Of a DNA stretch of 64,000 bases, positions 12,901 to 15,900 are shown in pieces. The DNA is taken from NCBI RefSeq assembly GCF_030013595.1, contig NZ_CP122768.1, one strand, 5' to 3'. Within the stretch, counting starts at the first letter, position 1. Every line of letters starts with the position of its first letter. Made by a program: the position numbers. The stretch comes from Escherichia coli (GTDB taxonomy: Bacteria; Pseudomonadota; Gammaproteobacteria; Enterobacterales; Enterobacteriaceae).

Positions 12901-15900
12901 TGGCAGTAAATATTCGTTCAAGGAATTAATAAAGTGCCGTGAAGGCGCGCTAAGACTGATGACAAGCGCAAAATCGCCAGATGCGCTACGCTTATCTGGC
13001 CTACGCGGCATTGTAACATATTGAATATAAACGTTTTGTAGGTTGGAGAAAACGTTTACGCCGCATCCGACATAAATAACACGCACTTAGCTAATAATCA
13101 GAGGCACCTCGTAAGGTGCCTTTTTTTAACCGAAGCGAACATCTCGTCCATGCGGTTCATCGAGATCCTGCCACGGACCAATTGAAATAATCCCCGTAGG
13201 GTTGATGGTCTTATGGCTGCGGAAGTAGTGATTACGGATGTGTTCGAAATTGACAGTTTCGGCAATCCCCGGCATCTGGTAGATATCGCGCAGGAAACCA
13301 TACAGGTTCAGGTAATCGCTGATGCGGTGCTTATCACACTTGAAGTGGGTGACATACACCGGATCAAAACGCACCAGCGTGGTCCACAGGCGAATATCGG
13401 CTTCGGTTAGCTGGTTGCCGGTCAGGTAACGATGCTGGCCTAAAATCTGCTCCAGTCGCGCCAGCGATTCAAACACTTTCACTACCGCCTCGTCGTAGGC
13501 TTGCTGGCTGGTGGCAAAACCGGCTTTATACACGCCATTGTTAACGGTGTCATAAATCCAGGCGTTAAGTTCGTCAATTTTCGGTTGCAGGGCTGGTGGG
13601 TAGTAATCACCAGCTTTCGCGCCCAGCGCATCAAACGCGGTATTGAACATGCGGATGATTTCTGCTGATTCGTTGCTGACGATGGTGTGGTTCTTTTTGT
13701 CCCACAGCACGGGAACAGTAACTCGTCCGCTGTAGTGTGGATCGGCGTGGAGATAAAGCTGATACAGAAATTCATGTTGATAGAGCGTATCTCCGGTTGC
13801 TCCCGGAAAACTGTCATCAAAGGTCCAGCCGTTTTCCAGCATCAGCGGGTTCACTACGGAAACGGAAATAAATGGTTCCAGTCCTTTGAGTTTACGCATG
13901 ATCAGCGTACGGTGCGCCCACGGGCAGGCGAGTGAAACATAGAGATGATAACGATCTTTCTCTGCGGTAAAACCGCCTATGCCAGTGGGGCCAGGAGTGC
14001 CATCGGCAGTGAGCCAGTTACGAAATGCGGAAGCTGAACGTTGAAATTTACCGCCGGTGGATTTGGTATCGTACCAGGTGTCATGCCAGACGCCGTCAAT
14101 CAGTTGACCCATATTTCTCTCCTCCAATAGCAAAAACGAGGAGTTTCCTCCTCGTTTTTTATCGTTAAGTATAGCGCGTGCTTACCACTTTTTATTCAGC
14201 AGGCGGTCGATGCTATACGCGCCCGGACCGGTAATTGCCAGCAGCAGGAATCCGCCAGAAATTGTCAGGTTTTTCATGAACATCAGCGAGTTGACGCCTT
14301 CAGCAAAGTTGCTGTGAAATAAAAATGCCGTCAGCAGCGTAAAGCCCGCAGTAAACAGGGCTGTGGTGCGAGTCAGGAAACCAAACAGGATTGCCAGACC
14401 ACCACCAAACTCAAGCAGAATCACCAGCGGCAGCATAAAGCCTGGGACACCCATCGCTTCCATATATTGTTGGGTACCCGCGTAGCCAGTAATTTTTCCC
14501 CAGCCTGCGGTAATAAACAGAATCGGCATTAAAATGCGCGCTACCAGTACACCAACATCTTCTAATTTTTTCATCATACTCTCCACTGCGCCACTCAGGC
14601 TGCTGATTGTTTTTTTGTGCAAGGGCGCGGTATTAGCGTCGTTGCTGTCGATGGAGAGAATCATAAACGTGGTGAATGATGATTGTTAGCAAGGAAAACT
14701 GTCAAAAATCTTCAAAAAATTTGAGGGATAAGGCCGGAATGGCTCCGGCCAGAGAGGTTATTAACCGCGAAGCTGTTGCTGCTTGAGGGTCGTTTTAACC
14801 AGACGCCAGGCGCTCCATAAGCCAAAACCGCGTCTGGCCCAGCGGACCAGCATATTAGGATGGCGAATCGTCCAGATCGCCATCACGCTACTGCCAACCA
14901 GCGCCCAGGAGCGCAGACTTAGCAGCATATTCCAGCGACGATCGTAAGCGCCTGTTGCCTCCAGCCATTCACGACGACTGGCAGAAAGATCCAGCCGTTG
15001 TTGCTGGATCTGGCTAAGCAGTTGCGCCTTACGTCGTTCACGTTCGACTTTACTGCTCACGGGACTCCTCCTCGAGCAGCTGCCGATCGTTTGCCAGCTC
15101 ATGGCGTGTATGGCGCAGCAAGGTGGATTTACGCGATTTACGTAACGTCCAGATACCGCCAATCAGTGCCAGTAGCAGCAACACCACGGTGGTGGCAATC
15201 ATCGCATTCAGGCGATATTGCGGATCAACCGCCCAAATAATCAGCACCATCAGGCTCATAAGACCAAATGCAGCGAAAAGCATCGTCAGGCCCAGCATCA
15301 GTAAAAGTTGAAAGAGATTCGCTTTTTCCTCTTCCAGCTCCACCACCGCCAGCCGCAGACGTGTTTCCACCATTTCAACCATGATGGAAACAATTCGCTG
15401 CCCGATGCCCAGAACGCTTTTACCGGGCCCTTGCGCGTGATGAGTGTCCGCCATAATTAACGACGCGACAGCAGAACGCCGAGCACTACACCGATTGCAG
15501 CGCCAATGCCCACGCCCGTCCATGGATTTTCACGCACATACTCATCGGCACGCGCTGCCGCAACACGGGTTTGTTTGGCGATGGCATCACCGGTTTCACC
15601 CAGGCGATAACGGCTCTGTTTCAGTGCCTGCTCCGCTTTGCTACGAATCTTACTCAACTCTTCTTTCGACTTCTCGCCAGATGAGCTAAGCACCTCTTCC
15701 AGCGTATCGGAAAGGGATTTCAACTCAGCACGCAGATGTTCCGTAGTGTGTTCTTTCGACATAGTTTTCTCCAGGTGAGTAAGTAGTGACTATTGTGAGT
15801 TAGTAGTCGCGCGCTTCCAGCTTTTTCAGCTCTTCCTGCGCTTCTGCCAGTTTCCGTTCGCGTTTGGCAATCTTATCGGCATCGCCTTTTTGCTTCGCCT

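Follow-up and report, generated by a model that had tools for sequence, protein, structure and literature searches.

The closest described relatives of the DNA hairpin analysed here are the intrinsic terminators of E. coli genes, with which it shares a GC-rich 8-bp stem, a 4-nt loop following a stop codon, compensatory conservation and an adjacent U-rich sequence. It also resembles bidirectional terminators, in that an A-run before the stem gives a hairpin and a U-run on the complementary strand, and judging by sequence the element should stop polymerases arriving from the opposite direction. As with the REP/BIME elements of 3′-UTRs, two REP units lie in the same 3′ region, and REPs between tandem genes have been reported as local terminators or decay blocks for the upstream gene (bioRxiv 10.64898/2026.03.23.713779). 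Finally, a stable hairpin followed by at least six U's is also found at the 3′ terminators of Hfq-binding small RNAs (e.g. Rfam isrD, STnc250). Near-complete repression has been reported for the terminator tR2 placed a few base pairs after a gene (PMC4824070). Here, we analysed a window of 64,000 nucleotides of an E. coli genome (contig NZ_CP122768.1), which is reversed relative to MG1655 (K-12 coordinate = 3,265,136 minus window coordinate), and found a hairpin at 13102-13121 flanked by a T-run on the plus strand. With a probability of roughly 0.8, we consider this element to be the 3′ hairpin of yqjG, its reverse-facing U-tract being incidental or at most insulating.

On the plus strand, the hairpin is composed of AGGCACCT (13102-13109), the loop CGTA (13110-13113) and AGGTGCCT (13114-13121), and is followed by a run of seven T's (T7, 13121-13127), the first of which doubles as the last base of the stem. 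In RNA letters this corresponds to the stem-loop AGGCACCU-CGUA-AGGUGCCU and then the U-tract, with 7 U in total, and the T7 run can be read as a predicted U-tract for plus-strand, i.e. antisense, transcription. The first-pass annotation had described a strong plus-strand hairpin with T7 at 13102-13127, and both the coordinates and the signal hold. A fold of the 56-nt context yields -17.1 kcal/mol for the plus strand (z = -3.9; a value reached by 0 of 200 shuffles) and -17.2 kcal/mol for the minus strand. In a strict terminator scan (perfect stem ≥7 bp, ≥5 GC pairs, loop of 3-8 nt, T-run ≥6), both strands of the 64-kb window together gave 5 sites, as compared to 0.02 per Markov shuffle; as a class of signal, the combination of hairpin and T-run is far beyond chance. 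A general terminator scan of the window called the site on the minus strand only, and we infer that the missing plus-strand call is an artefact of the scanner, whose greedy G-U stem extension uses up two of the T's. The 20-nt hairpin is single-copy in the window even if up to 3 mismatches are allowed, and hairpin and T-run are identical in K-12.

The DNA of the yqjG 3′ hairpin, read on the plus strand, is the terminator stem to which the first-pass annotation referred. The gene yqjG, which encodes a glutathionyl-hydroquinone reductase, lies on the minus strand (13126-14112) and precedes the hairpin, the stem of which begins 4 nt past the TAA stop codon (13126-13128). On this strand, the element is a GC-rich and conserved stem-loop at the 3′ end of the yqjG mRNA (13102-13121), with 5 GC pairs in the 8-bp stem AGGCACCU/AGGUGCCU and a 4-nt loop. 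The question of chance needs to be restated, since yqjG already accounts for the hairpin: T7 is the complement of the A at the stem base, of the spacer AAAA and of the final AA of the yqjG stop codon, so that two of its T's simply mirror that codon on the other strand. Because the hairpin is explained by yqjG, T7 requires just the TAA stop, a four-A spacer and an A-U pair at the base of the stem.

Beyond the hairpin, the yqjG-side tail reads CUGAUUAUUA (13092-13101, minus strand), a degenerate U-tract with a tail score of -3.02. The spacer between yqjG and yhaH (12836-13101) holds two REP units, one at 12976-13004 (GCCAGATGCGCTACGCTTATCTGGCCTAC) and a second, degenerate one in the opposite orientation at 13038-13073 (GTAGGTTGGAGAAAACGTTTACGCCGCATCCGACAT), which gives a weak naRNA4 match that reflects its REP similarity. 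The first unit lies within an Escherichia-specific segment of about 160 bp (12938-13101), placed between the hairpin and the ancestral upstream region of yhaH. This upstream region carries a predicted yhaH promoter on the minus strand (12882-12910; -35 TTTACT, 17-nt spacer, -10 TATTCT), which is conserved across genera. Downstream of yqjG and co-directional with it follows yhaH (12470-12835, minus strand), and further on the same strand yhaI (11872-12228), which converges with yhaJ on the plus strand (10925-11821). The gene layout of the first-pass annotation, with yhaH and yhaI on the minus strand and REPs in the spacer, is correct. The hairpin lies between two minus-strand genes and not between convergent units, and no plus-strand unit ends at it: yhaJ, the closest gene on that strand, stops at 11821, a distance of 1.3 kb.

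We compared the yqjG locus in 80 species representatives of other Enterobacteriaceae; in 66 of them, the yqjG stop is followed by a perfect hairpin rich in GC. In 58 of the 80 species the hairpin starts 3-8 nt past the stop, and in another 8 at 10-38 nt. The stems themselves are not alike in sequence: AGGCACC/GGTGCCT (Escherichia, Citrobacter), AGGCGTCC/GGACGCCT (Salmonella), GGGCATC/GATGCCC (Enterobacter, Kluyvera and others) and GGGCGCG/CGCGCCC (Kosakonia, Klebsiella). When 60 hairpin regions were aligned with MAFFT, the consensus obtained from RNAalifold was poor, since variable stem and loop lengths put the alignment out of register; because of this slippage, pairs were counted by script on 54 sequences registered at the invariant GGC/GCC clamp. 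Pair 4 was A-U in 31 sequences, G-C in 21 and C-G in 2; pair 5 was C-G in 30, U-A in 22 and U-G in 2; and pair 6 was C-G in 41 and G-C in 9, the remainder being three further pairs of standard or wobble type and a single mismatch. Thus, 161 of the 162 cells at pairs 4-6 are paired, among 25 distinct stems. Stems that vary and yet stay paired, i.e. compensatory changes, indicate that the hairpin is under selection. On these sequence comparisons, the hairpin at 13102-13121 is orthologous to the 3′ hairpins of yqjG across Enterobacteriaceae.

In which direction does this conserved hairpin terminate? Tails were scored in TransTermHP style in both directions across the 66 hairpin-bearing species. 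The score favours the yqjG direction in 57 of these 66, and 18 have a canonical U-rich forward tail (-4 or better), e.g. Enterobacter with GATGCCC-UUUUUUAAUUC at -5.3. A reverse score of -4 or better was confined, among the 66 species, to two Escherichia sister clades and Trabulsiella. The hairpin of the window scores -3.02 forward and -5.40 reverse, and this reverse score is the best of the set; its forward tail has 4 U in the first 8 positions, which passes a lenient scan rule and is weak beside the UUUUUUAAUUC orthologues. Wobble pairs in the stem core point the same way as the forward scores, with 18 G-U pairs on the yqjG-sense strand versus 8 on the antisense strand, and the longer stem lies on the sense strand in 18 species versus 7 on the antisense strand; among species that are phylogenetically non-independent, these biases suggest a modest lean to the yqjG sense strand. 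The forward tail scores, together with this lean, lead us to regard the ancestral element as a yqjG terminator. The first-pass annotation had offered the element as a bidirectional terminator of yqjG. Its assignment to yqjG is borne out by the conserved 3′ hairpin, and the word bidirectional, as far as the sequence tells, applies only by half: the reverse tail is strong (-5.4), the tail in the yqjG direction is weak (-3.0), and yqjG and yhaH are co-directional instead of convergent.

The weak forward tail also bears on whether the hairpin terminates at all. Alternatively, it may be no terminator in either direction in E. coli and act only as a 3′-exonuclease barrier or processing stop, within a longer yqjG (or yqjG-yhaH) transcript whose true termination would occur at the REPs or by Rho. 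This would fit the weak forward U-tract, a stem placed 4 nt past the stop (cf. PMC4824070), the reported role of REPs of tandem genes as terminators or decay blocks (bioRxiv 10.64898/2026.03.23.713779), and the hairpins that Klebsiella and Kosakonia keep with A-rich tails such as AAUAAUUC or AAAUUAUUUC. We nevertheless regard a pure barrier as quite unlikely, given that the canonical U-rich forward tail of 18 of the 66 species points to an ancestral terminator role.

How did the present asymmetry come about? In Escherichia, including E. albertii, insertion of the REP-bearing segment (about 160 bp) took place immediately behind the stem, which was thereby parted from the ancestral UAUUAAUUC tail; in E. 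coli, CUGAUUAUUA now forms the tail. In genera without the REP insert, the yhaH promoter (TTTACC... TATTCT) lies about 20-30 nt beyond the yqjG hairpin. In front of the stem, the spacer between stop and stem is CCAC in E. albertii, ACAA in the sister clades and in three genomes labelled E. coli, and AAAA in E. coli proper; joined to the TAA stop and to the A-U pair at the base of the stem, AAAA yields A7 on the sense and T7 on the antisense strand. The equivalents of T7 in the sister clades and E. albertii are TTTGTTT, TTTGTCT or TGTGGTT, and the ACAA spacer of the sister Escherichia clades needs a single substitution to give T7. Using BLAST with a 69-nt query that covers the hairpin, T7 and the yqjG end with a long coding flank, we recovered this stretch without any difference in 4591 of 5426 complete E. 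coli genomes, whereas 3 genomes carry the TTTGTTT allele. In the O157:H7/O55:H7 lineage, a deletion has removed 1 nt from the 3′ arm of the stem. The least conserved part of the locus is the yqjG-yhaH spacer, with indels between E. coli strains and the insert absent outside Escherichia.

From these observations, we propose the following course for the yqjG 3′ hairpin. It would act as an intrinsic terminator and/or as a protective 3′ stem-loop 4 nt past the stop and, ancestrally, would have insulated the yhaH promoter close downstream. REP insertion behind the stem and drift of the spacer from CCAC via ACAA to AAAA then left a weak forward tail and a T7 on the plus strand. The element may now efficiently terminate polymerases transcribing the plus strand, i.e. 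antisense to yqjG, which could derive from yhaJ read-through escaping Rho or from spurious starts in the AT-rich, REP-filled spacer, and it would thereby shield yqjG from antisense transcription. A source of such polymerases exists: a Rho-dependent 3′ end has been mapped at K-12 position 3253150 on the minus strand, i.e. window position 11986 on the plus strand, antisense to yhaI (PMC7815308), and the convergent hairpin of yhaJ and yhaI (11844-11861) has a poor tail in the plus-strand (yhaJ) direction. Termination of yqjG itself is predicted to be only partial, because the tail is weak and the stem lies 4 nt from the stop, where it may be occluded by the terminating ribosome; the downstream REPs may supplement termination or decay protection.

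The drift of the spacer toward A and its near-fixation could also reflect selection for the reverse T-run instead of neutral change. The orientation of T7 would then be adaptive, the hairpin having been retuned as an antisense backstop (an insulator) before yqjG, a possibility that is compatible with the main reading and that we hold only tentatively. Such a backstop would stop polymerases from yhaJ read-through or from the REP spacer from colliding with yqjG transcription, an advantage that we think unlikely to have driven the change. The spacer becomes consistently richer in A on the way from E. albertii via the sister clades to E. coli, 85% of genomes share the identical T7 allele as against the 3 with TTTGTTT, and the hairpin that follows upstream, in the yqjF-yqjG interval, likewise faces both ways (-4.88 and -5.37). 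Rho-limited transcription of the plus strand does reach the region, antisense to yhaI (PMC7815308). However, only one substitution separates T7 from the sister-clade TTTGTTT, which itself scores -4.4, and GC-to-AT mutational drift in a 4-nt spacer explains T7 sufficiently. Moreover, shared ancestry alone predicts near-identity within a species, the curated list of Adams 2021 maps no plus-strand 3′ end to the hairpin, and the O157:H7/O55:H7 lineage tolerates its stem deletion.

Taken further, the yqjG hairpin may have switched its functional polarity in the E. coli lineage, so that its selected role would be to end plus-strand transcription; we consider such a switch very unlikely. The transcripts to be ended would be yhaJ read-through that escapes Rho or a non-coding RNA of about 205 nt with REP sequence, initiated divergently from the yhaH promoter and extending from near 12921 to near 13127. 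If true, the reverse T7 would be a lineage-specific adaptive innovation and not a by-product of a stop codon and an A-rich spacer.

Is a T-run that faces away from its gene exceptional in this window? We examined the hairpins behind about 50 long ORFs of the window and applied a cut-off of -4.5 or better for the reverse tail score. This was reached behind yqjG, behind yqjF and at the gene ends at 23310 and 50342 (both plus strand), all with co-directional neighbours, and also at one true convergent pair. The hairpin between yqjF and yqjG (14136-14155) scores -4.88 forward and -5.37 reverse. Thus, A-rich sequence commonly leads up to terminator stems in this window, and ‘wrong-way’ terminators are for that reason nothing unusual here. 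The first-pass annotation had treated a plus-strand terminator without a plus-strand gene as an oddity; with three other co-directional gene ends showing equally strong reverse T-runs, it is not one. Next to a co-directional gene pair, a terminator pointing backwards is as a rule no more than the A-rich stretch leading up to the terminator of the gene itself and, given four cases in a single 64-kb window, should not be read as a hidden gene.

The same annotation had raised a small plus-strand transcript arising within the 12.84-13.10 kb spacer, and this proposal found no backing. On this view, the hairpin and T7 would end a plus-strand gene for a small RNA or small protein that starts in this interval and has escaped annotation; one candidate is a REP-containing RNA of about 205 nt that would be initiated close to 12921, in the direction opposite to the yhaH promoter. 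A GC-rich hairpin with U7 is indeed typical of the 3′ end of Hfq-type small RNAs. A promoter scan of the plus strand of the spacer found none, and a relaxed scan, in which nothing exceeded 8/12, returned one weak 8/12 site (TAGACG, 17 nt, AATATT; 12886-12914), which coincides with the conserved yhaH promoter on the opposite strand. Six plus-strand ORFs of 10-21 codons are present in the spacer, none of them with a Shine-Dalgarno-like motif as a ribosome-binding site, and the longest sits inside a REP. At permissive thresholds, Rfam gave no family above threshold in 11800-14300; the best match was isrD with 21.5 bits (E = 0.33), far below its gathering score of 37, followed by STnc250 with 17.7 (gathering 42), and both span little beyond the terminator.

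Published data sets agree. The RefSeq annotation of K-12 has no feature between yqjG and yhaH, and the curated Term-seq 3′ ends contain none on either strand in K-12 3,251,800-3,252,399 (Adams et al. 2021, PMC7815308, supplementary file 1). This Term-seq negative is a soft one at the hairpin, because both flanking genes are weakly expressed (DESeq2 baseMean about 300 and about 210; supplement of bioRxiv 10.64898/2026.03.23.713779). The region has no entry in the small-ORF supplement of the ribosome-profiling study of Stringer et al., and the locus has none in the TERMITe supplements by gene name or coordinate. It is likewise unmentioned in the main text of the small-RNA deep-sequencing study of Shinhara 2011, and our literature search returned no paper naming yqjG together with yhaH. 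Furthermore, within E. coli no other part of the locus varies as much as the body of the would-be RNA, which genera other than Escherichia lack. An Hfq-type small RNA would have its own promoter, a conserved body and a known family, and the element shows none of these. With no credible promoter, ORF led by a ribosome-binding site, Rfam family, K-12 annotation or curated 3′ end, we rejected a hidden plus-strand gene, which we judge highly improbable.

In the frameshift site of dnaX, an A-AAA-AAG heptamer lies next to a stem. We also considered programmed -1 frameshifting at yqjG, where the same heptamer lies beside the stem, and rejected it: the heptamer is located past the in-frame TAA, so that ribosomes never decode this run, and there is no spacer before the stem.

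In evolutionary terms, the yqjG hairpin illustrates that effective polarity can drift in a conserved terminator hairpin whose stem is retained. In this case, the drift came after the REP insertion behind the stem and after three substitutions in the spacer ahead of the stem, and it may alter the insulation of the gene from antisense transcription.

How does the locus compare with known systems? Unlike the intrinsic terminators of E. coli genes, the element has its good U-tract (U7) on the antisense side in E. coli and CUGAUUAUUA on the sense side. Unlike bidirectional terminators, which serve convergent genes, it lies between the co-directional yqjG and yhaH, and its tails are very unequal: A7 lies upstream, and the downstream CUGAUUAUUA cannot mirror it as a symmetric A-tract/U-tract pair around the hairpin would. 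The hairpin between yqjF and yqjG (14136-14155) is the better example of the symmetric bidirectional type. Whereas REP/BIME elements are multi-copy palindromes matching a consensus, the yqjG hairpin is single-copy, has no likeness to the REP consensus and is older than the Escherichia-specific REP insertion, with orthologues in genera without the insert. It differs from the terminators of Hfq-binding small RNAs in having neither a promoter nor a conserved body ahead of it, and in Rfam scores that stay below threshold. Overall, the element belongs to a familiar kind and is ordinary, though unannotated: most likely, it is the terminator of yqjG.

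A second two-faced terminator lies between yqjF and yqjG at 14136-14155 (AAAAAA-CGAGGAG-gaaa-CTCCTCG-TTTTTGC), with TransTermHP-style tail scores, in which more negative values denote stronger U-tracts, of -4.88 in the yqjF direction and -5.37 in reverse. Other Enterobacteriaceae conserve this hairpin, which precedes the yqjG ribosome-binding site by about 20 nt; a conserved TATACT lies ahead of it, right behind the yqjF stop. It could serve as a yqjF terminator or as an attenuator in the yqjG leader. Elsewhere in the window, gene-end hairpins with reverse-strand T-runs were also found between co-directional neighbours, downstream of the plus-strand gene ends at 23310 and 50342. 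The reverse tails here (TTTTTTATTA, -5.45, and TTTTTCTTTT, -5.71, respectively) outscore the forward tails at both sites.

The 3' hairpin of yqjG (13102-13121) itself varies within E. coli. In the one O157:H7 genome among the fetched loci (L082, locus position ~430-455), a 1-nt deletion shortens the 3' arm from GGTGCC to GGTGC, and two O55:H7 search hits (H101 and H102) align over 1 nt less, matching this deletion. The plus-strand stem that is left in O157:H7 comprises 7 bp including one G-U pair, and the stem in the yqjG direction only 5 bp and a C-A mismatch; yqjG also has a codon change at its C-terminal end in this genome. Insertion sequences are drawn to the same spot, as seen in E. coli HCP5S3_I2 (L088, ~720-1430), KOr024 (L084, 1-400) and SEV4 (H21). 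In one strain an IS200/IS605 element separates the T-run precisely from the stop codon of yqjG, IS26 directly adjoins the yqjG end in another, where similarity to the window ends within the 3' arm of the hairpin, and a third strain carries an IS1 within the yhaH-yqjG spacer.

An imperfect inverted repeat, ATTAATAAAGTGC / GCACTTAGCTAAT (12925-12955 and 13083-13095), flanks the Escherichia-specific, REP-bearing insert in this spacer; 10 of its 13 positions are complementary. The end of the insert nearer yhaH, GCGCGCCTTCACGGCACTT-TATTAATTC, can be aligned to the terminator hairpin and tail of Citrobacter and Salmonella. This may reflect a second hairpin copy that has decayed or, alternatively, MITE-like termini. 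A yqjG locus of Enterobacteriaceae type lies on a contig labelled Chryseobacterium sp. 18061 (L047, CACSKA010000008.1); in the terminator region it hardly differs from Citrobacter sp. 18056 (L035), which was sequenced in the same project, and the assembly is probably mislabelled or contaminated.

Beyond the spacer, the minus-strand yhaH has lost 1 nt compared with K-12 (GGGG to GGG, 12789-12791), which shifts the frame beyond codon 15 and leaves two minus-strand ORF pieces, 12703-12855 and 12470-12763. Of 5426 complete E. coli genomes, no more than 61 have this exact allele over 81 nt, and by this rarity it looks like a natural pseudogene allele of a minor lineage.

The hairpin between the convergent yhaJ and yhaI (11844-11861, GGGGCG-aaatat-CGCCCC) has a usable tail in the yhaI direction only. 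This one-sidedness fits the Rho-dependent 3' end reported at K-12 3253150 (-), antisense inside yhaI at window position ~11986 (Adams et al. 2021, PMC7815308).
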